A DNA stretch of 64,000 nucleotides from Oligoflexia bacterium (GCA_015232355.1 JADFZW010000016.1:33419-97418), one strand, 5' to 3'. Positions 9,092-56,246 are shown, numbered from the stretch's first letter. Notes: generated by a model from the letters alone, not told the origin. Program-made: numbers and translations.

Positions 9092-12000
9092 ATGTCTGAG
9101 CAGAAAAGTAAGCTACTTTCAAATAGCGATAGAATGTATCCGCTAGATATTGTCACATTATTACAGATGACTTTATCGGAATATGAAAAGAAAAAAAGTA
9201 TTTTTGGGATACCTGCAAGTGCATTTTTCTCTCCTAAAAAATATCCTCAAATAAAATTAAATCGATTTAATCAAACCTTAGATTCTCCTCTGGGAGTGGC
9301 CGCCGGCCCACAAACTCAACTCTCTCAAAATATCATTTGCTCTTGGTTGGTGGGGTGTCGTTTTATCGAATTAAAAACCATTCAAACATTAGATGAGTTA
9401 GAAGTAAGCAAACCTTGTATTGATATGGAAGATGAGGGATTTAATTGTGAATGGTCACAAGAATTAAAACTTCATCAATCATATAATGAATATCTTAATG
9501 CTTGGATTATGATTCATATTCTTAAAGATAAATTTAAATTTGCAAACATTGGTACCATCTTCAATATGAGTGTTGGTTACAATTTAGAAGGAATCATGAA
9601 TGAAAATGTACAAACATTTTTAAAGAAGATGAGAAATGCTGGTCCTGATATCATTGAAGCGAAACTAAAACTAAAACCCTTTTATCCGAGAGTGATGGAT
9701 CTGGATATTCCTTCGGTTATCTCTGATAATATTACCCTTTCAACAATGCATGGATGTCCTCCTGATGAGATTGAAAAGATCGGACTCTATCTCATCGGAA
9801 AAGAGCGCTTTCATACTACGATAAAATTAAATCCAACTCTAAATGGCGCTAAAGAGTTGCGAGACATTTTAAATAATAAATTAGGATACATCAACATCAA
9901 CGTTCCTGATATTGCCTTTGAGCACGACTTGAAATATAAAGATGCTTTGGCAATTATTAAAAATCTAAAAAAAGAATCCGACAAATACAAACTGCATTTT
10001 AGTATAAAATTCACCAACACCTTAGAGGTGGTGAATAATAAATATATTTTTGATAAGAGTAATCAGATGATGTACATGTCCGGTCGAGGACTGCACGCTC
10101 TCTCCATCAACATCGCCAACAAAATTCAAAAACAATTTGCCGGCAAATTAGATATTACTCTCTCTGGTGGTATTGATGCTTTCAATGTGGGAAGTGTTTT
10201 GGCCACAAATATTAAGCCACTTACGGTTTGCTCTGATTTATTAAAACCTGGTGGTTACTCTCGTCTGGCCCAATACCTTGAAACTATCAAAAAAAGTATG
10301 GATAAGTGTAATGCCACAAATTTAGATGAATTGGTTTTGAAAACTGCAAAGCTCAAAGGCAAAAATATTCCGGCCGCTACACTTAAAAATTTAAAAAATT
10401 ACAGTGAAGGATTATTTAATACTAAGATCATCAAGCAACCAGAACAACCATCCAGATATCACAAGGAAGCTTTCCCTTGGAAAAATATAAAAACCAGTCG
10501 TACCTTAACGGCCTTTGATTGTATTAAAGCTCCTTGCCAAGAGACTTGTCCCGCTCATCAGATGGTTCCTCTCTATATGTATTTAACATCTAAAGGTGAA
10601 TGGCAAAAAGCACTTGAAGTAATTCGTTTATCGAATCCATTTGCAAATTCCACTGGAATGGCCTGTGATCACACTTGTGAAACTAAGTGTACTCGAATTA
10701 ATTATGATTCTCCTCTGAAAATTAGAGAGATCAAACGCTATCTGGCGATGAAAGAAAAAACTATTGAACTGAAAATTAAACCGAAAAAAACAAAAGAGAG
10801 CGACAAGAGCGTGGCCATAATTGGTGGTGGCCCAAGCGGACTCAGTGCTGCTTACTACTTAAGATTAGCTGGTCTTCAAGTTCAAATCTTTGAGAAAAAA
10901 GAAAATTTAGGAGGAATGATCACCAACATTTTACCAAATTTCAGAACCATCGCGAAGAGAGTTCAGCACGACATCGATCGTATAAAATCTTTAGGTGTTG
11001 TTATAAATGAAAATAGCGAAGTAAAAACTGTTGATGAGTTTGAAGCAATTCAAAAGAAATTTGATTATACTTACGTGGCAGTTGGCGCCAGTCGGTCAAA
11101 AAAATTAAATTTAGAGGGAGAAAATGAGTGTTTAGAGCACCCTCATGAGAGTGGTCTTATTGATTTCTTAAGTTTCTTAGAACTTGTAAAAACAAATCAA
11201 ATAAAAAAATTACCTCCAAAGGTTGTGGTAATCGGTGGAGGAAATTCTGCTATCGATGCCGCTCGCAGTGCCAAGCGATTGGTAGGTACAAAAGGAAGTG
11301 TTACTTTAGTTTATAGAAGAACAGTAAGAGAGATGCCCGCAGATAAAGATGAAATTCACGAGTTAAAAGAGGAAAAAATAAATATTATCGAACTTACTCT
11401 TCCTCATAAAATAATCTCGAACAGCAGTGGTCGTACAAAGAAAAAAGTTATCGCTCTAGAATGCGTGAAGATGGCACTCTCTGATGAAAAGGATAAATCT
11501 GGTAGACCAATTCCTAAACCATTGGCCAATTCAAACTTTAAAATTAAATGTGACTATATCATAAATGCTATTGGACAGGAGGTCTCTCTCGGATTTTTAC
11601 CATCCAATGTGAATATTGAAAAAGTTTTAATGGGAGGAGACGCCGCTCGTGGACCATCATCAATTATCAAAGGTGTGGCCGATGGATTAAATGCCGCTCT
11701 AACTATAGCTTCGAAAGAGGGACGAGGAGGATTTTATCAAAATCTTCAGGAGCTAGTAAATTTTTACTCTAATGTTGAAGAAAAAATTGATTTTGATAAA
11801 TTAAGAATAAAAAAAGCAAACCGTCACTATGGAATTCCTCTACCAAAAATTGCAACAAACAAACGCAAAGGTTTTGATGTAGTAATTAAAACACTAACTG
11901 ACAAAGAAGCAAAAATTGAATCTGCTCGCTGTCTTCATTGTGATAAACTCTGTGATGTTTGTGTAAGTGTATGTCCTAATCGTGCAAACATAAGTTATGA

Positions 12001-12529: not shown

Positions 12530-14029
12530 TTACTGCCTATTACTCTCTCTATCCCTATGAAATGCAAACAAATCAGTATAAGGATATTTAGCTTTAAATC
12601 CTAATTTCAAAAATTCATTATATAATTCTCTCTGATCTGAGATGAAATAAAAACTTCCCATCTCTAAATCTTCTAAACTCTTATTGCCTTTCAATGCTTC
12701 GATAATACCAACAAGTCCATTCCTTCCAATTCGATTACTTTCAGTCAAAGTCAATTTGCGCAAACTCTTATTATCTTTTAATGCTTTAAAAATATTAATT
12801 GCATCGTTATCCCCAATTCCATTACCCGATAGATCTAAACTTTGCAAGCTAGTATTGTTTTTAAGTTTTTTGAATGCTTGAAATAAAAGAGTTTCATCTT
12901 CGTCCTCTCTAAGGGCCCCAATAGAATTATATGCTAGACTTAAATTTTTTAAACTTTTATTGTCTTCAAGTGCTTCAACAATTGTAACGATAGCACTTCT
13001 ACCAAGTCCATTTTGTGATAGATCCACATCTTGCAATTTTTTATTACTTCTAAATGTTTTCGCTATCTCTGTTACATCTAAGACACTCTTATTATCGTTA
13101 TATATACATGATATATTTAATTCTTTTAAACCACTATTCCCATTAACTCTAAGTGCTTGAAAAATTCTCATCATTCCATTATTCCCAATTACACTTCGAT
13201 GTAGATTAAAACTTTCTAAACTATTATTTACTTCCAATGCTTGGGCCATTTTTTCTAAACCTACATCAGTAATATCACCCTTCCCACCGACAGATAGATC
13301 CAACTTTTTTAAGGTTTTATTAACTATAATTGTATTTGCCAATTTACTTGCACATTTATCTCCATAGTTTCCATAAGACGATAGTTTTAATTCTTGCAGA
13401 TGAGGAAACATTCTTAAATTATTTAAAATAAGCATTCCAGTTTCATTAGCAGGTAATTTTAGTTTGTATACTTTTAATCCCTCATTTTCGATAAGCATTA
13501 AAAAATTTTGAATCTTTTTCTCTTTTAATTCTTCTTTTTTGTCAACGTCTGCTATTTTTTTTATCTGATTCCACATTGATTGCAAAAAATTAATTATAGG
13601 ATTTTGATTACATGGAGTATCCTCTGGATCCACTACTGTTCGCTTAAGTTCAAATTTAATATCCTTAAAAAAATCATTTCCTTGCGATTCACTCCCATAT
13701 TTAACAAACTCATCCCAATCTTTAGATACAAGTTGAGTGCTCGCAAGATCTTCTTTTGTTCCTAAAAATTCAAAAATAAGTTTCATCATATCTGCAGGCA
13801 AATGCGGATGTGCTTTGCCAATATCTACAGCATTTCGTACATTTCTACTTTCATATTTATTTTTATTGTGCTCATTGTTTTCATTGTTTTCATCGATATT
13901 ATCCGGATTATCCAGCATATTTTCCTTTCTCTCTTCTGTGGCCAATACTTCAGATACCTTTACAACATTCAAAGTAAATTGCATTGTTGTTAATAGTAAT
14001 AAATAAATTATTATAAATGAAACCCTCAT
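12530..14029 (-). CDS. secreted F-box-like / RNI-type leucine-rich-repeat protein (eukaryote-like)
   Basis: Has an N-terminal signal peptide. LPADMMKLIFEFLGTKEDLASTQLVSKDWDEFV fits the F-box consensus. About 9 repeats of ~28 aa of ribonuclease-inhibitor type follow (L-x-x-L-x-L-S-x-N-x-I-G...). Confidence 0.8.
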   Translation of the reverse strand: MRVSFIIIYLLLLTTMQFTLNVVKVSEVLATEERKENMLDNPDNIDENNENNEHNKNKYESRNVRNAVDIGKAHPHLPADMMKLIFEFLGTKEDLASTQLVSKDWDEFVKYGSESQGNDFFKDIKFELKRTVVDPEDTPCNQNPIINFLQSMWNQIKKIADVDKKEELKEKKIQNFLMLIENEGLKVYKLKLPANETGMLILNNLRMFPHLQELKLSSYGNYGDKCASKLANTIIVNKTLKKLDLSVGGKGDITDVGLEKMAQALEVNNSLESFNLHRSVIGNNGMMRIFQALRVNGNSGLKELNISCIYNDNKSVLDVTEIAKTFRSNKKLQDVDLSQNGLGRSAIVTIVEALEDNKSLKNLSLAYNSIGALREDEDETLLFQAFKKLKNNTSLQSLDLSGNGIGDNDAINIFKALKDNKSLRKLTLTESNRIGRNGLVGIIEALKGNKSLEDLEMGSFYFISDQRELYNEFLKLGFKAKYPYTDLFAFHRDRESNRQ

Positions 14030-15196: not shown

Positions 15197-16198
15197 ATGA
15201 ATACAAATTCATCTAACGAAAATTTAAAACGTATAAAGAACAAAGAATTATTAAATAGAACACTAGAATTACGAATGAATGAGAAAAAATTTACTCTCAT
15301 GTTGTTAAATCATTTAGCGGAAATTGAACATCGTAGGTTGTATGCCGAACTTGGATTTTCATCTTTATATGAATATTGTTTAAATACTCTTTCCTACTCA
15401 GAATCAGAAGCAGCACTTCGCGTGCAAGCATCAAGGTTGCTTAATGAAAATCGTAATGTCGTGGAGGAAAAAATTAGCAATGGAGATTTGAGTTTAAGTC
15501 AGGCATCAGCTTTACAAACTTTTTTTAGCATGGAAGAAAAGGAACATGATAGGAAATTTAATTTTACGGAGAAAGAAAAATTAGTCGAGCAAATTAGTAG
15601 AAAAAACATAAGAGATACTAGAGAACAATTAAATCAAATGCGGACTGAACCAAAGAAAAATGCAACAATTAATATAAAAATTGATGCTGAAACAATGAAA
15701 AAATTAAATGAATTAAGAGGGAAATTGGGTAGTAGAAAAGATGATCTTGAATTAATTGCATGGTTGATTAGCGATAAATTAAAAAAGTTAGAACAGGATG
15801 TGCAAAAAACCATAGCAAAAGAAGAAGAAAAAAATAAACTCACACAAAATTGTAATTATCTCAATAACCATGAAGACAAAATAAAATCACATTCAAGATA
15901 TATAAATCCTAAACTTCGCAAGCTTCTACTTTTCCGGGCGAGTGGAAGGTGTGAGTTTATATCAAAAATCACTGGTAGACGTTGTGAAGAAACTAGAAAT
16001 TTGCACATTGATCATGTGAATCCCTATGCTCTCTCTCAAGATAATTCTATAGAAAATTTACGAGTCTATTGCTCTTCTCATAATGCTTTTTCAGCATTAC
16101 GAACATATGGACATCATGTGATGGATAAATATATCAATTCAAAAATTGCAATAAATAATCAGTACACACGCATAACTTCAAGACGAATGAGATTCTAG
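15197..16198 (+). CDS. HNH endonuclease domain protein (DUF222-like N-terminal region)
   Basis: The C-terminal HIDHVNPYALSQDNSIENLRVYCSSHN is an HNH motif. CEF...C precedes it. Confidence 0.8.
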   Translation: MNTNSSNENLKRIKNKELLNRTLELRMNEKKFTLMLLNHLAEIEHRRLYAELGFSSLYEYCLNTLSYSESEAALRVQASRLLNENRNVVEEKISNGDLSLSQASALQTFFSMEEKEHDRKFNFTEKEKLVEQISRKNIRDTREQLNQMRTEPKKNATINIKIDAETMKKLNELRGKLGSRKDDLELIAWLISDKLKKLEQDVQKTIAKEEEKNKLTQNCNYLNNHEDKIKSHSRYINPKLRKLLLFRASGRCEFISKITGRRCEETRNLHIDHVNPYALSQDNSIENLRVYCSSHNAFSALRTYGHHVMDKYINSKIAINNQYTRITSRRMRF

Positions 16199-16592: not shown

Positions 16593-16928
16593 TTACCAAC
16601 TCTTTAATAAAATAGCATTTTTTAAAATAGTACTTACAAATGGATCAGTTGTTGAATTATCATGGGTACTGAAAACAAGATCTACTTTTCTTTCTCCTAT
16701 TTTCTTTTTAATTAACATTAATATTTTAAATTTATTTTGAATGTGCTGGTTGATGATTGTTTCATCACCAACAATTAGTAAATCAATATCTCCACCTTTT
16801 TTATTATCATCCACTCTACTTCCAAACAAATAAATTTTAGTTCCAGATGATGCTTTTGAACTAACATCGAGGAAAAAAGAGTCCAGAACTGATATTATTG
16901 ATTGGCCTTCTAGAGATGTAATCCTCAT
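16593..16928 (-). CDS. MNT-type nucleotidyltransferase (antitoxin-like)
   Basis: YLFGSRVDDNKKGGDIDLLIV is the GS...DxD motif. It lies downstream of the HEPN gene. Confidence 0.85.
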   Translation of the reverse strand: MRITSLEGQSIISVLDSFFLDVSSKASSGTKIYLFGSRVDDNKKGGDIDLLIVGDETIINQHIQNKFKILMLIKKKIGERKVDLVFSTHDNSTTDPFVSTILKNAILLKSW

Positions 16929-16950
16929 AACTCTCTTTTTAATTTATACA

Positions 16951-17373
16951 TTAATAAATTATTTTTATATTTATTAGTTTAGGAGCATATTTTTTAATAT
17001 TAATAAAGAAAATTTCTAAATCGGATTCAGTGTAATCGTGTGCAGTTATATTTCGTAGAGAACGAATAATTAACCACTCATCAACATTTTCAATTAAGCT
17101 ATTCTTTTCTGCGAAGTCTAGTAAATCACGAAAACTACCCTCAAATCCGGGATCTTTTGAAATTATTATTGCTCGTAAATATTTTGTTAAGTATATTTCA
17201 GATGCTCTAGCAAATCGGGCAGAAAAACTTTCCCACATTTCCATTTGAAGATCATCTAATAGCTTTGGGTTTGTCGGAAGATTTATAATTCGATTAAAGC
17301 TAAAATTAAGATGTTTTATAGCTTTATCCAATTTATCTGCATATTTTTTTATAAGTTCTAAATTATTTACCAT
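16951..17373 (-). CDS. HEPN-domain protein (toxin-like)
   Basis: LRNITAHDY fits the R-x4-H-x-Y motif. It is paired with the MNT gene. Confidence 0.75.
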   Translation of the reverse strand: MVNNLELIKKYADKLDKAIKHLNFSFNRIINLPTNPKLLDDLQMEMWESFSARFARASEIYLTKYLRAIIISKDPGFEGSFRDLLDFAEKNSLIENVDEWLIIRSLRNITAHDYTESDLEIFFINIKKYAPKLINIKIIY

Positions 17374-23461: not shown

Positions 23462-23566
23462 TTCATGTATTTACATCAAGAATTCTATATAAAAAGTTAT
23501 GGGGTATTATAAAATTAATCATGCCCAATATCTTTTATAGCTGCCAAGGTATACTTTATTTTAAAA

Positions 23567-23600
23567 TCACACGGAATCGCACACGGAATCGCACGGAATC
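23567..23600. repeat. tandem micro-repeat (CACGGAATCG units, ~3 copies) abutting palindromic element copy a
   Basis: Reads TCACACGGAATCGCACACGGAATCGCACGGAATC directly in the sequence. Confidence 0.7.
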
Positions 23601-23671
23601 GTGCCACTTTCCATGTGGTAGCTCTAGTTAGTCGGAAATTAAAAAGAAATGCTACCATTCGGAGTGTGCAC
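23601..23671 (+). repeat. palindromic interspersed element, copy a (complete short form, 71 nt)
   Basis: GTGCCACTTTCCATGTGGTAGC-loop-GCTACCATTCGGAGTGTGCAC. The arms can pair over ~19 bp with a few mismatches or wobbles. Confidence 0.75.
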
Positions 23672-23803
23672 TCCTACTCCCTCCTAGAGTGCAAAAAAAC
23701 ATTCTCCTAAATAAAAAAATTATTCATCCGATATGATAATTTAAGAGGAGTAGTGTAACTCGTACTCTAGAACTTTATTAACATAGCTGTAAGGTTAAAT
23801 TAT

Positions 23804-26038
23804 ATGTCACTATTACATCGAGAGCATATAATAATTGCATATTTAATTACATATTTAGTTTTATTCATATCTATGGCCATAATTATGAACATAAACATAA
23901 AAATATCTATGGCGAGTGACAAGGAAGACCCTCCTGAAATTGAATGTAGCAATGATAGTTCAGTAAAACTTAATAAACATAATAAGTTTAATGATGAAAT
24001 AAAATCGTTAGTAGATAGATTTGATAGAAAATGGAATATAGACAAAGAGCTGCTAAAAAAAATTAAACAAAATCGCCCTAAGCGACCTTGGGAAGATGGT
24101 GATGTTGATACGATCTATCGCTTAAGTGAAAGTGATTTAGAAGTTCTCACAGGAAAAAACAAGGAGAAAAATACAAAGAAAAATAAAGAGAGAAATAAAG
24201 AGGAAGGAGATATTCCTTCACTATCTGTGATCATCTCTGCTCGCAATTTTTTGGAAAAACATCTTCAAGGCACATTCAAAATTGATCAAGGAAATAGAGT
24301 TGGTAAAATGACTAAGCTATATGCTTTTGGTGAAAATCATATCTCAACAGCGGAACTAAAATATAGAGGGAAAATTCTCTCTTATTTAATAAAAATTCAT
24401 CTACAAGCAGGTAATCTCGTAACCATTTCTGATGAATCAGTAGATGTACATGATGTACATAATGATAAAATTCATTTTAATAATGAAAATAAAAAAAATT
24501 TCTTATCTCGCTTGTACATAAATTTTGATGAAAAAGATACAGCTTTACTCTCTAATTTAGATTTAACCACCTGGGAAACAAAAAATGCTCAAAAAGAAAA
24601 AATAGAAGTATGTATGCTGCCGATTCAAGAAATTGATAAAAAAGCAAATATCATATATGCCAATCGAAATAAAATGAATAGAACAGATTACATTATGGAG
24701 TACAAGGCCCTTTGTGACAAAATTAAAAATTTTTCACTGTCACAGACCAAATTTTTAAATCGAATAAGAAATGATCGAAACCATACCCTTATAGAAAACG
24801 CCCAAAAACTTTTAGACAAAAATTCTAGCAATTTAAATATTTTAATAGCAGGATCGAATCATCTTGATGAAAATAATAAAGAAAGAAATCTCCTTTTGAA
24901 AAATGACGGAGTAAATATTTATTTACCGAAGAAAATTCCTAACAAAGCAAGATATGAGGAAGAAAAATCGGCCTCCGATTTAACGACACCTAATCTTGTC
25001 TCCAATTGGGATGTATATCATAGGGCCCTCATCACACTTGCAAAGATACTATCAACAATTCCCACAAGTGAGATGACAAGAAATTTTAATGAGAAAGATG
25101 ATTGTGGAATGCTTGATATATTTAAAAATATAAAGCTAGTATCAACATTAATGAAAGAAGGTTTTGATTTTAAAGAAGCAATTTTTGCAAATGGAATGAC
25201 TCCATTACATATTGCTGCTAAAAAGGGTTTCACAGATCTAGCTGAACTACTTTTGAATGATCCTAAAATTAATCCAAATATATTAAATAATATTGGAGTA
25301 TCTCCTTTAACTTATGCCGCTGCTTTTGGGAATAAAGACATTGTAAAGTTACTTATAAAACATCCAAAAATAGATTTTAAATTAGGAATGTACAATAGCA
25401 ATGGAAATTTACTATCCTCTTTAGATGTGGCCAAACAAAATGGGTATCCCGAAATTGTAAAGATAATTGAGGATTTTGTTACAAAAACAGATGATGATCT
25501 GGCAAATAACTTGATGTCGGCCGCAACAAGCGGTGATTTGAATAAAGTAAAAAAATTAATTAAAATAAATCCAAAAATAACTGAAGTAAAAAATAGCAAG
25601 GGTGAAACTGCATTGATGTTGGCGCTGAAAGATTTCAATTGGAATGTAGTTAAATATCTAGCTAAAATAAATCCAAAAACAATCGGAATGAAAAATAATA
25701 ATGGCGATAGCGCATTGATATTAGCTCAGAATAGTGTTGCATTTGCAAGAGGCAATTGGAAAGCTCCCTTTAATTGGAAAATAGTAAAATATTTGGCAGA
25801 ACTAAATCCTTCAGCAATTGAAGAAAAAAATAGAGATGGTGAAACTGTATTAGTATTGGCGGCACGAGGTGGATTTTTTGATATAGTAGAATATTTAGCT
25901 AAACTAAATCCGAAAGCAATTAATATTCAAAGTAATGATGGCAAAACGGTCTTTTCGTTGGCACAAAAGAAAGCTAGACTCGATGTAGTTGAACGCTTAA
26001 AGAAAATAAAATCCACATCATCAAATAGCGCGGAATAG
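23804..26038 (+). CDS. ankyrin-repeat protein with a large uncharacterised N-terminal region
   Basis: The C-terminal half holds at least 7 ANK repeats (GMTPLHIAAKKGFTDLAELLL, GVSPLTYAAAFGNKDIVKLLI, GETALMLALKDFNWNVVKYL, and others). The N-terminal ~430 aa have no motif I recognise apart from a hydrophobic leader. Confidence 0.85.
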   Translation: MSLLHREHIIIAYLITYLVLFISMAIIMNINIKISMASDKEDPPEIECSNDSSVKLNKHNKFNDEIKSLVDRFDRKWNIDKELLKKIKQNRPKRPWEDGDVDTIYRLSESDLEVLTGKNKEKNTKKNKERNKEEGDIPSLSVIISARNFLEKHLQGTFKIDQGNRVGKMTKLYAFGENHISTAELKYRGKILSYLIKIHLQAGNLVTISDESVDVHDVHNDKIHFNNENKKNFLSRLYINFDEKDTALLSNLDLTTWETKNAQKEKIEVCMLPIQEIDKKANIIYANRNKMNRTDYIMEYKALCDKIKNFSLSQTKFLNRIRNDRNHTLIENAQKLLDKNSSNLNILIAGSNHLDENNKERNLLLKNDGVNIYLPKKIPNKARYEEEKSASDLTTPNLVSNWDVYHRALITLAKILSTIPTSEMTRNFNEKDDCGMLDIFKNIKLVSTLMKEGFDFKEAIFANGMTPLHIAAKKGFTDLAELLLNDPKINPNILNNIGVSPLTYAAAFGNKDIVKLLIKHPKIDFKLGMYNSNGNLLSSLDVAKQNGYPEIVKIIEDFVTKTDDDLANNLMSAATSGDLNKVKKLIKINPKITEVKNSKGETALMLALKDFNWNVVKYLAKINPKTIGMKNNNGDSALILAQNSVAFARGNWKAPFNWKIVKYLAELNPSAIEEKNRDGETVLVLAARGGFFDIVEYLAKLNPKAINIQSNDGKTVFSLAQKKARLDVVERLKKIKSTSSNSAE

Positions 26039-26093
26039 TGTCACTTTCCATTTGGTAGCTCTAGTGAGTCACAAACATAAAGTTAATCTTAAC
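26038..26093 (+). repeat. palindromic element, copy b (left arm plus 34 nt shared with the long copy c; right arm absent)
   Basis: GTGTCACTTTCCATTTGGTAGCTCTAGTGAGTCACAAACATAAAGTTAATCTTAAC. Its first G is the last base of the TAG stop of the ankyrin gene. Confidence 0.7.
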
Positions 26094-26224
26094 ATTCACC
26101 ATAGGTGTTAATAAATTCTATCATGCCTTAGAAAAAGATTTGGTAATAAAATTAAGCAAAGGACTTCCCTCGCTTTCTCACTTTAACAAGAGATAAACTA
26201 GATCTCATTTCGATTTGAAGTAGT
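26094..26224 (+). pseudogene. 5'-truncated, prematurely stopped duplicate of the small membrane-protein gene at 27644-27820
   Basis: About 130 nt align by eye to 27691-27822 with scattered substitutions. The translation ..FTIGVNKFYHALEKDLVIKLSKGLPSLSHFNKR ends at TAA. Confidence 0.6.
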
Positions 26225-26341
26225 GATTCCTTTTATAATAATCTTCAATTTTTAATTGAATCAGTGTTTATTTTGCAGTCCAATAGCGAATCCCTACTAA
26301 GCAATGAACATGTTTAGCAATAATTTGCTTAAATTTTAATT

Positions 26342-26362
26342 ACAGTGTACAATGTACACTGT
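26342..26362. promoter_or_regulatory. perfect 10+1+10 palindrome ACAGTGTACA-A-TGTACACTGT upstream of brnT (candidate operator)
   Basis: Lies 18 nt upstream of the brnT ATG. RHH antitoxins typically bind palindromic operators. No binding data are available. Confidence 0.45.
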
Positions 26363-26379
26363 GTGCAAAGGAATTATAT

Positions 26380-26682
26380 ATGAGCAAATTCGTATGGAGT
26401 AAAGATAAAGATGAATTACTTAAAAAAACTCGAAATATTTCATTTGAAAATGTCGTTTCTGCTATAGCAGAAGAAAATTTGCTTTCCATCGAGGCAAACA
26501 GAAGCAAAAATCATGAGGGTCAAAAAATTTTAATTGTACTAATAAATGATTATCCTTACGTTATACCGTTTGATGAGCTTGATAACGGAGATATTATTTT
26601 AAGAACAATATATCCTTCAAGAAAGGAAAAAAAGAGAATAAATAATGAAAACGAAAAGAAAAAAAGAAATAAAGCTAGATAA
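26380..26682 (+). CDS. brnT: BrnT-like (DUF497) type II toxin
   Basis: FVWSKDKDELLKKTRNISFENVVSAI ... IILRTIYPSRKEKK follows the BrnT pattern (F-x-W-D-x-x-K ... isFe ... R-I-I-S-x-R-K). Confidence 0.65.
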   Translation: MSKFVWSKDKDELLKKTRNISFENVVSAIAEENLLSIEANRSKNHEGQKILIVLINDYPYVIPFDELDNGDIILRTIYPSRKEKKRINNENEKKKRNKAR

Positions 26683-26968
26683 GTATGAAAAACAAATTGA
26701 AAAAGATCGTCTAGCAGGATCTTTTAAAAATATTAATGAAGAAAATTCTGTTATTAAAAAATTGCAGAGTATGGCCAAAGAACAAATTAAAGAGAAAAGA
26801 ATTAATTTGAGAATGAACGCTGACGATTTGAAATATTTTGAAATGGAAGCTAAAAGAATGGGAATGGCCTATCAAACATTAATTGGCTCTGTACTTCATC
26901 GATATATTCATAATCAACTAATTGATGTTAAGGAAATAAATAAAGTTACAAGAAAAAAGGTCAGTTAA
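26645..26968 (+). CDS. brnA: BrnA/CopG-like ribbon-helix-helix antitoxin
   Basis: KRINLRMNADDLKYFEMEAKRMGMAYQTLIGSVLHRYIH matches the BrnA-type antitoxin C-terminal region. The ORF overlaps brnT. Confidence 0.7.
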   Translation: MKTKRKKEIKLDKYEKQIEKDRLAGSFKNINEENSVIKKLQSMAKEQIKEKRINLRMNADDLKYFEMEAKRMGMAYQTLIGSVLHRYIHNQLIDVKEINKVTRKKVS

Positions 26969-27009
26969 TCAACAACATTTAAAATGCTTATTTAAACAAA
27001 CGGTAAATC

Positions 27010-27034
27010 ATGAGTAATTGCAACCATGATAAAC
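27010..27034 (+). pseudogene. 25-nt fragment duplicating the start of the zinc-ribbon antitoxin-like gene (28333-28357)
   Basis: ATGAGTAATTGCAACCATGATAAAC versus ATGAATAATTGCAACCATGATAAAC gives 24/25 identity. Similarity stops where the GAATCG array begins. Confidence 0.6.
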
Positions 27035-27035
27035 G

Positions 27036-27078
27036 TGCGAATCGCGAATCGAATCGCGAATCGCGCGAATCGCGAATC
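27036..27078. repeat. tandem micro-repeat array (GCGAATC / GAATCGC units, ~6 copies) abutting element copy c
   Basis: Reads GTGCGAATCGCGAATCGAATCGCGAATCGCGCGAATCGCGAATC directly in the sequence. Confidence 0.7.
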
Positions 27079-27421
27079 GTGCCACTTTCCATTGGGTAGC
27101 TCTATTGAGTCACAAACACAACGTTAATATTAACAACAGATGAAAAAGCAGACTAATTCAAAGTGATGAGAATTTAATTATCTTCACTGAGTTTTTATTT
27201 TTTACAATATTTGCTCTCAAAGAGCTGAGATAGATATATTTATAAATCTTATGAAAATTGCTTCTATCTTTAATTAGATCGTTAATTGTATCTAAAGCAA
27301 TTTTTCATACTTTATTTAATGGAAGATAAAACTATTCTCGATTATTTGATTGAGAGGTTATAAGGTTATGTAATATGACTTTCGCAATATCCTTAGCCAG
27401 GTAGCTACCATTCGGAGTGTG
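27079..27421 (+). repeat. palindromic element, copy c (long form: arms separated by ~300 nt of non-coding AT-rich DNA)
   Basis: Left arm GTGCCACTTTCCATTGGGTAGC at 27079-27100. Right arm GCTACCATTCGGAGTGTG at 27404-27421. No ORF lies between them. Confidence 0.6.
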
Positions 27422-27438
27422 TCTTCAATTCCTATTAG

Positions 27439-27460
27439 TGGCAGAAAGAGCAGGAATCGA
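27439..27460 (-). repeat. att-like direct repeat: 22-nt copy of the 3' end of the tRNA-Sec-like gene
   Basis: TGGCAGAAAGAGCAGGAATCGA is identical to 31231-31252 in the same orientation. Confidence 0.8.
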
Positions 27461-27573
27461 TTCTGCCCTCGACAAATCTTTATAATATTAACAAATTAGA
27501 ATGATTTCAAAAACTTGCCTTTTGACGGCATTCTTCTTTTTTCATCATTTTTCACGTTAGTTCATATAGTCAA

Positions 27574-27605
27574 ATGTGCAAAACGTGTGCAAAACATGTG
27601 CAAAG
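27574..27605. promoter_or_regulatory. three tandem 11-bp repeats (A/G)TGTGCAAAAC upstream of the small ORF
   Basis: Reads ATGTGCAAAAC GTGTGCAAAAC ATGTGCAAAG, ending 38 nt before the ATG at 27644. Operator- or iteron-like; function unknown. Confidence 0.35.
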
Positions 27606-27643
27606 ATAAGTAAACCTATCAACAATTAACAAAGGAATATTTA

Positions 27644-27820
27644 ATGAAATCAATTATTGATATTTTAGTCTCCTTAGGTCTCTTAGTAACATTCACTGTA
27701 GGTGTGAATAAATTTTATCATGCCTTAGAAAAAGAATTGGTAATAAAATTAAGTAAAGGACTTCCCTCGCTTTCTCACTTTAACAAAAGATTAACCAGAT
27801 CTCATTTAGATTTGAAATAG
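27644..27820 (+). CDS. 58-aa small membrane protein (not in the ORF track; function unknown)
   Basis: ATG follows AAAGGAA at 7-nt spacing. Translation MKSIIDILVSLGLLVTFTVGVNKFYHALEKELVIKLSKGLPSLSHFNKRLTRSHLDLK has one TM helix and a basic tail. A decayed copy lies at 26094-26224. Confidence 0.45.
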   Translation: MKSIIDILVSLGLLVTFTVGVNKFYHALEKELVIKLSKGLPSLSHFNKRLTRSHLDLK

Positions 27821-27851
27821 TCGTCCTAAAACAATTATAGTAACTATTTGA

Positions 27852-27879
27852 CTATTTTACCGCAAATGCGGTAAAATAG
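27852..27879. terminator. 13-bp-stem inverted repeat CTATTTTACCGCA-AA-TGCGGTAAAATAG followed by CTTTT (terminator of the small ORF and/or operator of the downstream pair)
   Basis: Perfect inverted repeat read in the sequence. It sits between the small ORF and the toxin-like gene. Confidence 0.4.
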
Positions 27880-27930
27880 CTTTTAGTATTATCGCAACTA
27901 TGGTAAGATACAAAACAATTGAGGTTCCAG

Positions 27931-28320
27931 ATGGAAGGGAAATCAGATTTGCATAGGTTGTTAGAAGATAGAACAGTTGATTTGGCCCTTAAGATTAAAA
28001 GAGCTGCGGCAAATGATCTTGAATATTGGGATGGAGAAAAAAATCCTCCAAACTTACCAAGGAAGAGTTTTGAAATATTTCTTGATTATCTAGAAGAAGG
28101 AGATGTGCAGAACTATAGCATTGACTCAAGAACAAGTAGAAAAGGAAAGTACGGCAAAACAGGATTACCATGGATATTTAAATTTGAGCATACCACTCAA
28201 ATCTTGAGTGTTAAAAAAAGATATTTTTGCAAAGGATTTTTTTTTGAAAAATCCGATTTAAGAGGACTCGAGATACAATCTTTTAGAGAAGTCCAGATGA
28301 CCTTAAAAATAATAGATTAA
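27931..28320 (+). CDS. hypothetical protein, possible MqsR-like toxin
   Basis: ATG at 27931 follows GAGG. The C-terminal pattern ...WIFKFEH...YFCKGFFFEK...GLEIQSFRE recalls the MqsR ending (Y-x-K ... L-I-V-S-F-K-E). The toxin-first order matches mqsRA. Similarity is weak. Confidence 0.4.
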   Translation: MEGKSDLHRLLEDRTVDLALKIKRAAANDLEYWDGEKNPPNLPRKSFEIFLDYLEEGDVQNYSIDSRTSRKGKYGKTGLPWIFKFEHTTQILSVKKRYFCKGFFFEKSDLRGLEIQSFREVQMTLKIID

Positions 28321-28332
28321 GTGAGGCAAAGT

Positions 28333-28917
28333 ATGAATAATTGCAACCATGATAAACATTCAAAGAAAGAAATAGTAAAAGAAGTTTTAAAATGCAAGTT
28401 TAAATTCAAAACAATGGTTTGCAATGAATGTGGCCATTATTTGTGGGATAAAGAAGTAGAACAAAAGTTTAACCTCTGGCTAGAAAAACTCTATAAAAAT
28501 AAGCGTGAAAAATTTCAAGTTCAAATTCCTTTATCCGAGAACCTTCGAAAATGTCTCAATAAATTGAGACGCAATTATCCAAGCGTAACAGATACTGATT
28601 TAGTGAGGGCCATTATTATCACTTACCTAGACCATTTATCTACAAATAAAAAACTAATGAAAATGATTAATGAAAACATTACAGAGGAAATAATAAACTC
28701 TTTCGCTGAACCACCATTTTCTTCTATGAAAGTACAATTTAGACCTAAATACACCATCAAATATCTTGAATTAGCAAACATGATTGGATCTACTCAAGCA
28801 AAAGTAATGCAAGATGCGGTCAAGAAATTAATGGCCTTTTTCGTGGCCACGGATAATGAATTAAAAGATTTCTGGAATACTGAAATAAAAAAATACATTG
28901 ATATGCTTGTGGCCTAG
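28333..28917 (+). CDS. zinc-ribbon protein, possible MqsA-like antitoxin with an RHH-like middle domain
   Basis: N-terminal C-x-H...C-x-x-C (NNCNHD...VCNECGHYLWDKEVEQKF) resembles the YgiT/MqsA zinc domain. IPLSENLRKCLNKL...LVRAIIITYLDHL looks like a ribbon-helix-helix. Confidence 0.4.
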   Translation: MNNCNHDKHSKKEIVKEVLKCKFKFKTMVCNECGHYLWDKEVEQKFNLWLEKLYKNKREKFQVQIPLSENLRKCLNKLRRNYPSVTDTDLVRAIIITYLDHLSTNKKLMKMINENITEEIINSFAEPPFSSMKVQFRPKYTIKYLELANMIGSTQAKVMQDAVKKLMAFFVATDNELKDFWNTEIKKYIDMLVA

Positions 28918-28935
28918 ATTTTTAAGTAACTAGAG

Positions 28936-29904
28936 TTATAATGAATTTTTCTGACAGTTATCTTGCAATAAATATCTTTTGTTATCAGACTGAGCGTTCA
29001 CATTTGATGTAATTACTATGGAACAATCAGATCTATTTTTCTTATCAATATTAATATAACTAAATAACATGCTATCATCATCGGTGTTCACCTCTAGTTT
29101 TAACCAGTCACGATTAATTTTACCTGTATAAACCCACTTGTTGGTAGCTTTGGTCTCTAATTCACGATAGTACTTATCATAATATTTACCTTCTCTAGGA
29201 CCTACTACTGAGGGTGAAACGAAGAGTGGAATACCATCAAAGTCAACGAAAGTGGCAACATGTTCGTGACCAACCAAAATTGCATCTATTTTTGTTTTGA
29301 ATTTCTTTAATATAGGTACTAATTTTAAAAAAAATGATTTTTTTTCTTTCCATGTATGCTTTGGCCCTACGTCAGCAGGAGGGTGATGAAAAGCAATTAA
29401 AATCATTTTTTGATTCGCGCTCTCTAATTGATCTTGTATAAATTTCATCTGCTCTTCTATGCGTGTTTTATTTTCTTCATCCGAGTTTAGCACGATGATC
29501 AGTAGATCATTTTCGGGAACTATACTATAAAAATCTCCTGGCATTTTAAAATAATCCATCTCCCTCTTATATCCTTGATTATGATTTCCTACTGCTACTG
29601 CCATAAAATTAAATTCATCTATCCAGCTATTCCAAATGGCCGGATAAGTAGCTGATGAAGTAGCAATATTGGGAGCATTATCACCAACCATAATTAGATT
29701 TTTGATATCTGATTCATGTAGTGAGCTTTGTAAAAATGTTAAATCGGTTGCGTATTGACCAACATCACCGATAATTCCAAATGTATAAACTTTTGAAAAA
29801 GCATTGTCTGCAGTTGCAAGTGATGCAAAAAATATTAACAATGTAAGACCTATAAAATTTGCAATCAAAATTCTACTAACTTTCTTTGTTTTCTGTACTT
29901 TCAT
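28936..29904 (-). CDS. secreted calcineurin-like metallophosphoesterase
   Basis: Has a signal peptide and the motifs GDVGQ, VGDN, GNHN, FHHPP, GHEH in canonical order. Confidence 0.85.
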   Translation of the reverse strand: MKVQKTKKVSRILIANFIGLTLLIFFASLATADNAFSKVYTFGIIGDVGQYATDLTFLQSSLHESDIKNLIMVGDNAPNIATSSATYPAIWNSWIDEFNFMAVAVGNHNQGYKREMDYFKMPGDFYSIVPENDLLIIVLNSDEENKTRIEEQMKFIQDQLESANQKMILIAFHHPPADVGPKHTWKEKKSFFLKLVPILKKFKTKIDAILVGHEHVATFVDFDGIPLFVSPSVVGPREGKYYDKYYRELETKATNKWVYTGKINRDWLKLEVNTDDDSMLFSYINIDKKNRSDCSIVITSNVNAQSDNKRYLLQDNCQKNSL

Positions 29905-30199
29905 AATTTTTTCCTCTCTGTGTTTGTAAGATTGATATTATAGAAAACATACAGAGAAGATACCTTGAAAATTTTAAAATAAACCAGTCAAGCTACGGTT
30001 AATTAATTGTTAGAAATATTAAGATATGATTAATGATATTTATATTAATCTGATCTTAACAAAACGTTGATACAACTTTGATCTGATCTTGATTTGCGAA
30101 ATAACTACTTTCCTTTCACAATAACATCAGTGGTACTTTTATATATAAAAGCTATTTCATTGTGATTTAATTATTATTTAATTTTTCAAGGAGGAATTT

Positions 30200-31198
30200 A
30201 TGATTAATTCATTTAAATTTTACTTTCATGTTTTAAAAAATTGTCCACGATTACTTTTAATAATTATTTCTTTCTTACTCATTCTTTGTAATCACGAAAT
30301 TAATGCCAGAGAAATTAATTGCAATGATCTATCAATCCTAGAAGATGAGACGCGATTAAATGAATGTGCTGTTATTGAGGCCAACAATCATTCAAAAAAT
30401 TTTGATAACTATATTAATTATAGTCAAAGTATTGTCAAATATAAAGGACCTACTCACCAATCATTGGTAGAGATAGCGCTGAAATCTTTTTTCTTATCAA
30501 AAAATAGAATTAATAATATTATTGCTGCCACAATTGTACCAGATGCCCATCCTAACATTATAGCATTATTAAAACATCCATGGACTCATTTGTATATGCT
30601 TAACAAGAGAGGAAATTGGAGTTGGGGTGGGGCCGATAAATATTTTCAAGATAATTTAATTTGTCACAACCAAAATTCAAACTACGAAAATAATAGTTGT
30701 TCTCGTGTTCGAGGTTATTCTGGATTATCTGCAGAATATTATTATCTTCAAAATAATCAAAAAGCAGGTGATTGGTACTTAGGATACGCTGTTCATTTTG
30801 TAACTGATGTATCTACTGTTATTCACTCATCACTACCATCACTAACTCGTCTTGATATATTATTTAAACATACATCCTTTGAACAATGGATTAAAAATAA
30901 TTTTTCAAAAGGACACAATTTCTTAAGCAAAATTCAAAATGAAAAAGAAATTTATCAAATCAATGACCCTGCAGAAGATTTAAAAGATATCGCTGAAAGA
31001 TCAAGTTATTGGACAAGTGATGTCGGTTATAATGTTTGGAATAGTTATGCAGAAAATGGATATCCTGTTAGCGAAGGTACAGGTGATCAGGAACTGGTTG
31101 AGAATACAATAATAATGCTCAAAAATACTCTTAGTTATATTAAAGGAACCATCCAATTTACATTAAATAAGTACCAACAATTGGAATCAAAATACTAA
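30200..31198 (+). CDS. secreted zinc-dependent phospholipase C / P1-nuclease superfamily-like protein
   Basis: Has a signal peptide. THQSLVEIAL, VPDAHPN, HPWTHLY, and GDWYLGYAVHFVTDVSTVIH resemble the His/Asp zinc ligand pattern of that superfamily. Confidence 0.5.
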   Translation: MINSFKFYFHVLKNCPRLLLIIISFLLILCNHEINAREINCNDLSILEDETRLNECAVIEANNHSKNFDNYINYSQSIVKYKGPTHQSLVEIALKSFFLSKNRINNIIAATIVPDAHPNIIALLKHPWTHLYMLNKRGNWSWGGADKYFQDNLICHNQNSNYENNSCSRVRGYSGLSAEYYYLQNNQKAGDWYLGYAVHFVTDVSTVIHSSLPSLTRLDILFKHTSFEQWIKNNFSKGHNFLSKIQNEKEIYQINDPAEDLKDIAERSSYWTSDVGYNVWNSYAENGYPVSEGTGDQELVENTIIMLKNTLSYIKGTIQFTLNKYQQLESKY

Positions 31199-31230
31199 GA
31201 AGAAAATATTAAAATAAGTTGGTATGAGGT

Positions 31231-31325
31231 TGGCAGAAAGAGCAGGAATCGAACCTACCACAGACAGTTTTATCTACCTGCTACTGACTTTGAAGGCCAG
31301 CTGAGACACCAGTCCCCTTCTTTCC
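31231..31325 (-). tRNA. selC: tRNA-Sec-like gene (anticodon UCA, long variable arm, encoded CCA)
   Basis: RNA sequence: GGAAAGAAGGGGACUGGUGUCUCAGCUGGCCUUCAAAGUCAGUAGCAGGUAGAUAAAACUGUCUGUGGUAGGUUCGAUUCCUGCUCUUUCUGCCA. Features: 4-nt D-loop, anticodon loop CUUCAAA, 7-bp variable-arm stem, T-loop UUCGAUU. By eye I get a 7/5 rather than the bacterial 8/5 acceptor/T stack, with G1-U72, so this needs a covariance-model check. Confidence 0.65.
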
Positions 31326-50471: not shown

Positions 50472-50867
50472 ATGGAAGATAAAATTATAGATTTTCTTAA
50501 AAACAAGTATAATCCTATAGCAATCTACCTCTTTGGCTCCTACTCAAAAGGTAATATGACCTATGACAGTGATATAGACATTTCTATATTACTAAATAAC
50601 ATTACAGTAAATGCTAGTAATTTATTCGATTCGGCCCAAGAATTAGCAGCGATTATAGGATATGATGTGGATTTAATAAACTATTTAACAGCACCTCTTG
50701 CTCTAAAAATCCAAATCTTACAAAACAAAAGAGTAATTTATTGTAATGATAATGAAAAAAGATTATTTAATGAAATGATCACACTTTCTCTATATCAAAA
50801 ACTAAATGAAGAACGAGCATTAATATTAGAAAATGAATTTGGAGCAAATGTATGGAAGTTATTTTAG
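50472..50867 (+). CDS. MNT-type nucleotidyltransferase (MntA-like antitoxin)
   Basis: YLFGSYSKGNMTYDSDIDISIL is the GS...DxD motif. The ORF overlaps the HEPN gene start. Confidence 0.85.
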   Translation: MEDKIIDFLKNKYNPIAIYLFGSYSKGNMTYDSDIDISILLNNITVNASNLFDSAQELAAIIGYDVDLINYLTAPLALKIQILQNKRVIYCNDNEKRLFNEMITLSLYQKLNEERALILENEFGANVWKLF

Positions 50868-51267
50868 AAAAAACAACATCCATCAAAAGATGTATAGAAC
50901 GAATTAAAGAAGAGTACGGCAATAATCCTCTGAACTTACAAAATATCACTAAACAAGATTCAATCGTTTTAAATCTGCAACGTGCTTGCGAACAAACTAT
51001 CGATATCGCTAACTATTTGGTTGCAAAATTTAAATTAGGAACACCCAAAAATAGTCGTGAATCATTCGAATTAATATCTAAAGAAAAAATTATAAGCGAA
51101 GATATTAAAAGCAGAATGCATAAAATGATAGGGTTCATAATTATAATAAATTAGAATTGCCTATATTAGAAAGTATCTTAAAAAATAGAATTAACGATTT
51201 TATTATCTTTTGTGACGAAGTTTATGCTTATCTTAAGACAATACACACGCAGGTGCCGGCCGACTAA
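50852..51267 (+). pseudogene. HepT/DUF86-like HEPN toxin gene, disrupted at the catalytic motif by a frameshift
   Basis: Frame A ends ...SRMHKMIGFIIIIN* at 51154. A different frame, open 51124-51267, continues ..RVHNYNKLELPILESILKNRINDFIIFCDEVYAYLK, the expected DUF86 C-terminus. No intact R-x4-H-x-Y exists in a single frame. Confidence 0.6.
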
Positions 51268-53641: not shown

Positions 53642-55888
53642 TCAGGGACTGCAAGCACAGCGCGCTGACTTGCCATACCTGCGACCGTAGTCGTCGACGG
53701 CGCCATAGTAGCCATCAAAATAGAAGGCATTGCTGGAACCGTAGAGCGAAGACGACCAGAACCATTGGCCGTTTATTTTGAATATTTGTTCTTGATATTT
53801 TCCACCCTTATTTTTCATCTTATCTTCAAAAAGTTCATACTCTTCTAGGTTGGGAGCACGACAAGCTGGTGGCGGAAGTTTCGCTGCTAATTCTTGACTC
53901 TTTTTTCTGCGAGCATCTTTGGTCTTTAATCGATCATCAAGACTTCCATTTCCACGCATTGGTTTTAAAATTTCTTCTCTTTCGTTAAGTGCTTTTTCTA
54001 TACTAGCTCTAACGTCAGGTGGATTTAAGTCCAGGCAATACTTAATTGCCTCTTCATACGTTTTCTTTTGAACAAAGCTACTCATCCACATCAATCCCTC
54101 TTCGTCTTTCCATGCTTCTTTGCCGTCATTTACGAACGGAGGATAATCAGAAAAGTGATAAAATTTATGTCCCGAAAGTGTAGTCACTTCTTTGTCCCCG
54201 AATTTCTTTTTGTGCTCTTCAATCTTTTCTTTTAATTTTTTCTCTTCATCTTCTTGTGCTAACTTTTTCTTTTTTTCTTCTTCCGCTTGTTCTTGTAATT
54301 TTTTACTTGTATCTTCTTTTACACTTTTACTTAACTCTAACATCTTCTCTAGCTCTGCTAACTCTTGTAGCGCTTTCTCCCTTGCAACCTCTGCAACACC
54401 TGATGGTTCTTCACCGTTTGCAAATTCTTTTTTTCTTTTCTCTTCAATTAGTTTTCTTATCGAAGCAATTTTTAAATTAATCTCTCCTTTCTCTTTTTCA
54501 GAGATTGTAGATATATCACTTCCTTTTGAATATATCTTATCCATTAATGCTTTCGATCCTAGATTAACTAATTCATCTTGATAGATTTTTAAAATCTCTA
54601 AGTAAATACTGGCAAATGTTTTACGTTCAAATTGTAAATCTTCAATCATTTTTAGTGTGCGGGGATTGTGAGCATATTGAGTCCTTATTTTTTCTAGTAG
54701 TTTTCCAGAGGGACACATGTTGGGATTTTGAGGTGTGCCTGGATCTAATTTATCTGGCCCTTGAATTATCATCTGCGATTGTGTGTAGATTAAATCTTCG
54801 GGTGATAAACAGACTTTGCTTGGATCTAATAAAGTACTTTTATCATTGCTATTTTTACCTTTTACCAGCTCTAGATACTTTGCTGCTTTCATTACATCCA
54901 TCAAACTACTGATTGCTCCTCTATTGGTAAATTGATTAGTCATCGTATAGGGAAACGGCATACTCTTCGAATCTTCGATACACATCTGTTGATCTTCATT
55001 TTGTTTTTTCTCGAGTGCAAGGCCCAAGCGCATCCACAGATGGGCACTTAATTTCATAACTTCCTCTGGAACTTTTATTTTGCTGATTTGATCTTTTAGT
55101 AAATGCACTTGCAGATCTTTAAGGAGTGGACACGTGGATTTATCCTTTCCCTTTTCTTTCTGGCAGCCATTCATAACTTTAAATAGCGACTCTGCCGATG
55201 ATAATCTGTTTACTACTAAAACCTTAAATAAAATCCGGTCGAGTAATGCCATTCCAGTTGAACCATCATTCGTATTTCGAAACTTCTCTAAGAATTCATG
55301 CAAGGTCATGTTCGATGTAATGAGCGCTGTCTTTAAGTTTCCCTTGATCTCCTTATCTCCTACCATTCCTTTGCGCTCGAGCAGCACTGAGAGTGCTGAT
55401 GCCAGCACTTCTGTGTTTGCTTTGTCTATTTCATCCAAGATTGCATAGTCGTGGGTAAGTAAGCTCTGTGAAGTTTCATAATCTAGCTTTCCTGATTCTA
55501 AAAATTCTTTGCCTTTGATAGAACCTACAATCTTTTCTTGTTTAGTATTAGGGGAAAATTGCAAATTAAATAATTTCCCTTTAAGCACATCTAAAACATC
55601 TTTAGCAGTTTTAGTTTTCGATCCACCAGGACCGCCTAAGCTTAGCACGTGTTGCTCAGTTAAAACTGCGAGCAGAAGTGTATCTAAGTAACCATCCATC
55701 TCGCTATAATCTTCTCTCAATTTTTGCGATAGACTTTTAAGTCCGTCTTCTGCTTTCAACAATTCTTTGTCGTTTTCTTTAACTTCTTTAACTTCATCTT
55801 TTGCTAGAGAAGTGACTGATATAGAAAATATCAATATTAGAATGGATGTAATCAATTTTTGTTTATTCCAAAAGATTCGCATCCTCAT
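53642..55888 (-). CDS. MoxR-like AAA+ ATPase fused to a coiled-coil and a C-terminal DUF1566 (Lcl-like) domain, with an N-terminal signal/anchor sequence
   Basis: Walker A LGGPGGSKTKTA and Walker B YAILDEIDKAN. A Lys/Glu-rich coiled coil spans ~residues 470-560. The C-terminus GLMWMSS...YEEAIKYC...WFWSSS...ARCAC fits DUF1566. Confidence 0.7.
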   Translation of the reverse strand: MRMRIFWNKQKLITSILILIFSISVTSLAKDEVKEVKENDKELLKAEDGLKSLSQKLREDYSEMDGYLDTLLLAVLTEQHVLSLGGPGGSKTKTAKDVLDVLKGKLFNLQFSPNTKQEKIVGSIKGKEFLESGKLDYETSQSLLTHDYAILDEIDKANTEVLASALSVLLERKGMVGDKEIKGNLKTALITSNMTLHEFLEKFRNTNDGSTGMALLDRILFKVLVVNRLSSAESLFKVMNGCQKEKGKDKSTCPLLKDLQVHLLKDQISKIKVPEEVMKLSAHLWMRLGLALEKKQNEDQQMCIEDSKSMPFPYTMTNQFTNRGAISSLMDVMKAAKYLELVKGKNSNDKSTLLDPSKVCLSPEDLIYTQSQMIIQGPDKLDPGTPQNPNMCPSGKLLEKIRTQYAHNPRTLKMIEDLQFERKTFASIYLEILKIYQDELVNLGSKALMDKIYSKGSDISTISEKEKGEINLKIASIRKLIEEKRKKEFANGEEPSGVAEVAREKALQELAELEKMLELSKSVKEDTSKKLQEQAEEEKKKKLAQEDEEKKLKEKIEEHKKKFGDKEVTTLSGHKFYHFSDYPPFVNDGKEAWKDEEGLMWMSSFVQKKTYEEAIKYCLDLNPPDVRASIEKALNEREEILKPMRGNGSLDDRLKTKDARRKKSQELAAKLPPPACRAPNLEEYELFEDKMKNKGGKYQEQIFKINGQWFWSSSLYGSSNAFYFDGYYGAVDDYGRRYGKSARCACSP

Positions 55889-56047
55889 CTCCTCGTCTTT
55901 TCTTTGTTTTTATTATTACTATGTATTCTAACTAAACTGATCGGTGTTTTTGATTATTTCTTGAGTGTAAAAAACAATTAAATTAATTCTTTTGATCCGA
56001 CTGGTCCCACAAGTGTCGTCACTCGGGCAACTCTCGTAATGGTGATG

Positions 56048-56114: not shown

Positions 56115-56246
56115 ATTTTCACATTTTCATTTTCTCAAAAAAAATACCTCTTGCTTTTTATTCTAAAAATAGATAATATTATACATATGTCTATAGACAT
56201 GGCCATGGACACATGTATATTTGCCTTTAAAAAAAAGGGGTATTAA

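Follow-up and report, generated by a model that had tools for sequence, protein, structure and literature searches.

A palindromic, possibly MITE-like repeat beside accessory genes of an Oligoflexia bacterium

We analyzed a family of palindromic sequences in a 64,000-nt stretch of a metagenome-assembled genome (MAG) of an Oligoflexia bacterium (GCA_015232355.1, JADFZW010000016.1:33419-97418), hereafter termed the window, to which all copy counts and gene absences reported below refer. The element is non-coding, ranges from ~70 to 345 bases and consists of two conserved arms that enclose an interior of variable length. We regard it tentatively, with slightly less than even confidence, as a lineage-specific foldback repeat resembling MITEs (miniature inverted-repeat transposable elements), spread locally by segmental duplication and carrying a rearrangement-prone hairpin. 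Four traits make this assignment the best fit: conservation of the arms, interiors that diverge and nest in length, absence of coding capacity, and a copy at a second, unrelated site at a distance of 28.6 kb. As a sequence family it is new; as a kind of element it is familiar. Its position at the borders of accessory gene modules is largely a by-product of local tandem duplication beside a tRNA-Sec integration hotspot.

Two arm patterns, scored both by their occurrences in the window and by their expectation in shuffled sequence, define the family. The left arm, GTGYCACTTTCCATNNGGTAGC, maps to 23601, 26038, 27079 and 56048 with 0-3 mismatches (0.00 expected by chance) and the right arm, GCTACCATTYGGAGTGTG, at 23651, 27404 and 56093 with no mismatch (0.02 expected), all on the plus strand. 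The resulting four copies, a to d (Table 1), agree with the original prediction, made from the DNA sequence, that four same-orientation copies share two conserved arms and that two of them, at 23601-23671 and 56048-56114, are short and complete. Identity among arms amounts to 82-100% (18-20/22 for left and 17-18/18 for right arms), with divergence of the outer 3 nt in the right arm of copy c, and the homology of the right arms stops sharply after GGAGTGTG. The element termini are TG...CA. Between the arms lie 23 nt in copy d, 28 nt in copy a and 303 nt in copy c. Beyond TCTA, copies a and d have unrelated spacers, and that of a matches the first ~11 nt of the interior common to b and c. Copy c spans 27079-27421 (343 nt) from arm to arm; its AT-rich 269-nt interior contains no open reading frame (ORF) of more than 25 aa, in line with the long, ORF-free copy described previously. 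Arms and flanks have a G+C content of 47-53%, as opposed to ~32% for the window and 26% for the copy c interior. Profile hidden Markov models (HMMs) of each arm (nhmmer) retrieved no further copies in the window, and neither did a covariance model of the entire hairpin, which was applied unfiltered to the window and one relative locus.

Copies a to c occupy one locus and copy d a second, unrelated one. Copy a is located 140 nt past the rdgB stop codon and 132 nt ahead of an ankyrin-repeat gene. Copy d is positioned where a minus-strand gene for a MoxR-like ATPase and a phd/vapC pair diverge, in the intergenic region that separates them. Exact matches to MBF0361859-MBF0361894 (locus tags HQK49_; contig of 117,155 bp) were obtained for RdgB, the ankyrin protein and BrnT, among other products of the window. 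Short tandem units of the GAATCG type directly abut every left arm on its outer side: copy a has three, copy c ~six and copy b a single one (GAATAG), and copy d has two that are degenerate. In the copy a flank, GAATCG is repeated three times at spacings of 12 and 10 nt. The homology of a, b and c reaches 11-14 nt leftward of the left arm (GCRCGGAATMG).

Table 1. Positions of the palindromic element copies and associated features in the window.
Feature	Position	Strand	Details
Short tandem repeats CACACGGAATCG, ~3 copies	23565-23600	+	Tandem Repeats Finder (TRF) 23565-23601, 23568-23594; abut copy a left arm
Copy a, complete short, 71 nt	23601-23671	+	Left arm 23601-23622, spacer 28 nt, right arm 23651-23671
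Copy b, right arm missing	26024-26094	+	Flank homologue AATAGCGCGGAATAG, left arm 26038-26059, 35 nt more common with copy c
135-nt block	26090-26224	+	92% identical to 27687-27821; truncated 3' part of right-unit 58-aa ORF
Gene-start duplicate	27002-27034	+	Ribosome-binding site and first 8 codons of 194-aa gene at 28333; end of left unit
Short tandem repeats GCGAATC, ~6 copies	27037-27078	+	TRF 27037-27079; abut copy c left arm
Copy c, long	27079-27424	+	Left arm 27079-27100, b-shared 27101-27135, interior 27135-27403, right arm 27404-27421
Partial tRNA-Sec 3'-end duplicate, 36 nt	27439-27474	-	17 nt beyond copy c right arm
Intact 58-aa ORF (HQK49_12670)	27644-27820	+	Second 135-nt block copy at 27687-27821
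tRNA-Sec gene	31231-31325	-	Right-hand boundary of islet
Copy d, flank repeat and complete short element	56028-56114	+	Degenerate left-flank repeat TAATGG TGATGG (two units), then element 56048-56114 (67 nt)

The two arms pair with each other, as predicted, through 17-18 standard pairs of 22 (78% of cells) rather than the ~19 bp counted originally. Mismatched stem positions coincide in copies a, c and d, and no stem pair is altered on both sides in these three copies. Pairing is thus kept only because the sequence is kept: conservation of the sequence, which had been claimed together with that of the pairing potential, was borne out, and the pairing is not conserved independently. The covariation check suggested with the prediction, carried out on the copy alignment, yielded no compensatory base change. 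Folded as RNA, the full short copies reached -25 to -26 kcal/mol with z-scores of -3.3 to -4.0, the plus strand being slightly more stable. Copy a accounted for the upper end (-26 kcal/mol, z-score -4.0, 93 bits with the covariance model) and copy d for the lower one (-25.4 kcal/mol, z-score -3.3, 78.5 bits). In the DNA fold of copy c, the arms pair in the lowest-energy structure, with a z-score of only -1.8. Arms folded singly gave 0 to -2.5 kcal/mol at z-scores of -1.4 to +0.7, with no structure kept among copies.

These folds bear on the proposal that the element is a structured RNA, either a 3'-untranslated region (UTR) hairpin that ends or stabilizes upstream transcripts or a small RNA. 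The plus strand is the sense strand of all adjacent genes and folds slightly better than the minus strand (-26.0/-25.4 versus -23.3/-22.0 kcal/mol), z-scores range from -3.0 to -4.0, a conserved U-G pair fits the plus strand only, and copies a, b and c follow gene 3' ends. We nevertheless consider an RNA function highly improbable, given the lack of any compensatory pair change, of a U-tract and of a promoter-like site in the element, the missing arm of copy b, the 303 nt that separate the arms of copy c and the location of copy d in a divergent promoter region instead of a 3' UTR. No sigma-54 or sigma-70 promoter or intrinsic terminator was found within the arms. At the gathering threshold, no Rfam match overlapped any copy; at E = 10, the sole overlap was a chance-level match of ST7-OT3_4 to copy d (9.5 bits versus a gathering score of 80). 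The statement that the element belongs to no known RNA family therefore holds, and the small-RNA role offered beside it is unsupported, having neither covariation nor promoter or terminator signals in its favor. A degenerate tRNA was likewise rejected as a candidate, with nothing detected at the copies by ARAGORN and Rfam.

Copies b and c belong to two colinear tandem units of 1.0-1.3 kb, the left one extending over 26029-27034 and the right one from 27071 to 28357 and beyond. The units follow from three blocks that are colinear with their right-hand matches: 26029-26094, with 88% identity to 27071-27135; the 135-nt block; and 27010-27034 (25 nt), which is 96% identical to 28333-28357 and corresponds to the gene-start duplicate already recognized near copy c. 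A stretch of 551 nt, 27136-27686, is missing from the left unit, with the 5-nt microhomology TAACA (26090-26094) at the junction. It comprises the interior and right arm of copy c, the tRNA-Sec scar discussed below and, of the 58-aa ORF, the 5' part. This loss cost copy b its right arm and makes it a deletion derivative of a c-like copy. The original description of a left-arm-only copy was accurate in that a further ~35 nt are common with copy c; b did not arise by insertion of a lone left arm. As had also been noted, the left arm of b begins on the G of the ankyrin TAG stop codon at 26038, and its AATAGCGCGGAATAG flank doubles as the last codons and stop of that gene. The left unit stops eight codons into its version of the 194-aa gene, at a junction made by duplication rather than at the edge of a cassette. 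The 58-aa ORF encodes a hydrophobic N-terminus, produced no family match and is situated ahead of an orphan gene pair, with the truncated 92%-identical copy ahead of brnTA.

Since both units are colinear, the positions of b and c reflect segmental duplication beside the tRNA-Sec scar and not independent insertions. With these two paralogues inside one duplication, only about three of the four copies at the two loci are independent. This raises the alternative that all copies, including d, are passive relics of old segmental duplications or island DNA, with neither mobility nor function. Such an origin would agree with the demonstrable paralogy of b and c, with the flank and spacer start that copy a shares with them and with the absence of mobility machinery, target-site duplications and copies in any database searched. 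We judge it unlikely, though worth keeping in mind: the arms are far better kept than the spacers, and copy d shares nothing with the a-c locus outside the element, neither of which neutral decay of a duplicated segment would give.

When DNA integrates into a tRNA gene, it usually leaves a partial duplicate of the tRNA 3' end as a scar. Past the copy c right arm, 27439-27474 matches the tRNA-Sec 3' end at 31231-31266 (first 22/22 nt identical, 83% over 36 nt) and is such an island attachment-site scar. The scar and the tRNA gene delimit an islet of 3.76 kb (27475-31230) that has the direct repeat of the tRNA 3' end at its far boundary, as in tRNA-targeting islands. Its cargo consists of an orphan module of two genes together with genes for a secreted calcineurin-like metallophosphatase and for a zinc phospholipase-C-like protein; no integrase gene was found among its ORFs. 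The tandem units, the copy b deletion and this scar were all missed by the original prediction. Decayed tRNA-Sec fragments downstream of the right arms of a and d were considered and dismissed, with local alignments no better than shuffles (p = 0.17-0.75).

For comparison, we used the orthologous locus of GCA_015232015.1 (RdgB 67% identical), the closest relative compared. The gene order priA-rph-rdgB is maintained there, and synteny with the window breaks exactly at the rdgB end. What follows in the relative (10805-10939) is a bidirectional terminator-like hairpin, an ordinary terminator, and tRNA-Asn. The element was found in this locus neither by pattern nor by covariance model nor by repeat search, and the cassettes are also absent. 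Because the relative contains only tRNA-Asn and the terminator after rdgB, the whole region from 23.5 to 31.3 kb is accessory. Integrase-less islands stacked in tandem at tRNA genes are known as accretions of cis-mobilizable elements (CIMEs; ICESt1/CIME). The locus would resemble them in its integrase-less islet bounded by a partial tRNA 3'-end direct repeat and in the stacking of modules beside a tRNA gene. It would differ in that the palindrome is not a tRNA-derived attachment repeat and in that the stacked units share sequence left of the scar, an arrangement more in keeping with tandem duplication than with one integration after another.

Border marking by the element, in the form originally claimed, was not supported: b and c are paralogous parts of duplicated units, and the element adjoins only three of the six toxin-antitoxin (TA)-like modules in the window. 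Two of the module labels need qualification. For brnTA, BrnT and BrnA both have Pfam/NCBIfam matches below the curated cut-offs only; for the putative MqsRA-like pair, a faint zinc-ribbon match of the antitoxin (17 bits versus a cut-off of 61.8) is all that was recovered, its partner protein having no match. A search for homologues of the adjacent 194-aa protein, meant to lead to related cassettes, returned only the protein itself.

A different explanation for the border positions would be a hairpin or att-type site for site-specific recombination, similar to the attC sites of integrons, that delimits cassettes and is served by a recombinase encoded outside the window. In common with attC sites and with clusters of attC sites lacking integron integrases (CALINs), the copies are imperfect palindromes in one orientation, with a, b and c at successive module boundaries and b on the stop codon of the preceding gene, between promoter-proximal cassettes; the cargo includes TA and effector genes, as in chromosomal integrons. 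Furthermore, the stem has two helical boxes (7 and 6-7 bp) set apart by a spacer that is conserved though partly mismatched, then a loop that varies; the right-arm homology has the sharp end mentioned above, and the a-c locus is a proven integration site according to the tRNA-Sec scar. The attC core sites RYYYAAC and GTTRRRY are, however, absent, as the outer boxes read GTGCCAC and GTG(G)CAC without the R''/R' consensus AAC...GTT, and the boxes lack dyad symmetry, neither being an inverted copy of the other. Complete attC sites in arrays measure 57-141 nt, a size matched by a and d alone, while b is incomplete and c, with its arms 303 nt apart, measures 343 nt; d stands alone, and the 64 kb contain neither a linked intI integrase nor any other recombinase gene. 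The boundaries are accounted for by duplication and deletion: copy b lost its arm through a microhomology deletion in a duplicated unit instead of site-specific exchange, and the left unit ends inside a gene start. The cassettes also carry their own operators and leader sequences. We therefore view a recombination site as quite unlikely. A serine-integrase attB/attP reading was rejected on the reasoning that integration would leave two hybrid sites containing both arms, which copy c does not fit. A long shot related to these readings is that the arms represent the folded-strand recognition site of an undescribed recombinase, attC-like with a different consensus. Cassettes of TA and eukaryote-like effector genes would then have been assembled beside tRNA-Sec in a host-associated Oligoflexia bacterium, and the GAATCG direct repeats might serve as accessory binding sites by analogy with DR1/DR2 of attI.

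Another class to consider comprises REPINs, pairs of inverted repetitive extragenic palindromes (REPs), and the related bacterial interspersed mosaic elements (REP-BIMEs) associated with RAYT (REP-associated tyrosine) transposases (PMC3116915, PMC3337134). In REPINs, the inverted arms are conserved but the spacer is not, target-site duplication is absent, and singlets are found as remnants undergoing decay (PMC3337134). The element shares the conserved inverted arms and the less conserved spacer, forms a hairpin of ~70 nt (70-90 nt in REPINs), is extragenic and without target-site duplication, and contains the tetranucleotide GTAG inside GGTAGC; copy b would be a decaying singlet. Such a REP pair would be moved by a single-copy RAYT transposase (Y1 HUH) encoded elsewhere in the genome. 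We consider this very unlikely. In contrast to REP sequences, the arms are not short palindromes on their own: at 0 to -2.5 kcal/mol, they fold no better than shuffled sequence, and their single-arm folds are unconserved. No RAYT gene or Y1 transposase domain occurs among the window ORFs, and only four copies are present in 64 kb, three of them in one locus.

Bacterial MITEs and foldback repeats include the Correia elements of Neisseria, pneumococcal RUP and the Rickettsia RPE (PMC3184786). Like these, the element is short, non-coding and intergenic, with terminal inverted repeats of ~22 nt that bound non-coding sequence (ORFs of at most 25 aa) and ends that are better kept than the interior. 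It folds as a long stem-loop, and its length variants resemble internal-deletion derivatives. A difference is the presence of short tandem repeats at one end only. Overall, the element resembles MITEs, REPINs and attC sites in kind and is a proven member of none, because it lacks target-site duplications, self-palindromic arms and the attC consensus, respectively. Among the three roles put forward originally, the selfish MITE-like palindrome fits best, the recombination site is less likely and the small RNA found no support.

Several results weigh against the MITE-like assignment. No target-site duplication was found at copy a (GGAATC / TCCTAC) or copy d (GTGATG / ATTTTC). All four copies have one orientation, and about three independent copies occupy only two loci in the window. 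None of its sizeable ORFs encodes a transposase, RAYT, integrase or other recombinase domain, and no parent insertion sequence (IS) or transposase with the same termini was identified in the window or, together with further copies, in GTDB representative genomes, JGI metagenomes, IMG/VR, plasmids or phages. In exact-pattern scans, the left-arm pattern had two matches in GTDB representatives, both by chance; the right-arm pattern had ten chance matches in JGI metagenomes, none near a left arm; and IMG/VR contained nothing for either arm. Plasmids and phages, searched by blastn, gave nothing. The same results, with those from Rfam, uphold the description of the family as unrecognised. Lastly, between the shared blocks, the left unit contains brnTA and the right unit a 133-aa ORF, and these are unrelated. 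As simple duplication fails to explain this difference, there must have been either a replacement after the duplication or a joining of two related units.

IS1 terminal repeats (GGnnnTG...) were evaluated as a match to the element ends. The copy d left end, GGTGATGGTGCCACTTTACCTTT (56041-56063), is the best 23-mer of the window against the left terminal repeat of Escherichia coli IS1, with 17/23 positions. The other ends scored 9-13/23 at a background maximum of 16/23. This likeness was judged a coincidence.

Under the MITE-like assignment, an ancestral long, c-like copy would have reached two loci through transposition in trans by an enzyme encoded outside the window or through recombination, and the short copies may have been derived from it by internal deletion. 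We infer a rearrangement hotspot because the palindrome has the microsatellites of the flanks, the deletion at a microhomology and the junctions of the duplication at or next to it. Its hairpin or cruciform could stall replication, and stalling might promote slippage to create the flank repeats, deletion to create copy b and unequal exchange to create the tandem units. The copies would then coincide with module borders by taking part in rearrangement and not by defining cassettes. Effects at the RNA level, such as those of a -25 kcal/mol hairpin in the 3' UTRs of rdgB, the ankyrin gene and brnA, would be mere side effects.

Other features of the window were recorded alongside the element. Three MNT/HepT-type nucleotidyltransferase TA pairs (1637-2330 and 50472-51154 on the plus strand, 16593-17373 on the minus strand) have no adjoining copy. 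Near-perfect short palindromes upstream of brnT (26341-26362), the 133-aa ORF (27852-27879) and phd (~56180-56215) are probably TA autoregulation operators distinct from the repeat family. The 744-aa ankyrin-repeat protein (23804-26038, plus strand) and an F-box-like protein with leucine-rich repeats (LRRs; 12530-14029, minus strand) are both eukaryote-like, and their sequences suggest a host-associated lifestyle of the Oligoflexia bacterium. Between the F-box/LRR gene and an MNT/HepT pair, an accessory patch around an ORF of 333 aa that carries a weak HNH endonuclease motif (15197-16198, plus strand) is absent from the syntenic region of GCA_015232015.1. The MoxR-like AAA ATPase with a bpMoxR domain (53642-55888, minus strand) has at least seven further paralogues with 62-92% identity, encoded elsewhere in the MAG on other contigs; they lie within MBF0359926 to MBF0363570, and some are fused to beta-propeller/WD40 domains. 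The set represents a large recent expansion of a ternary-system-type NTPase family.

The locus illustrates how a hairpin-forming repeat, a tRNA-Sec scar and tandem duplication build a stack of TA and effector genes. Major open questions are not touched by it unless a recombination site turns out to be the right reading. Should the full genome bear out the family, this poorly sampled lineage of Oligoflexia would have its first described family of small palindromic repeats, and the element could mark genome plasticity there.

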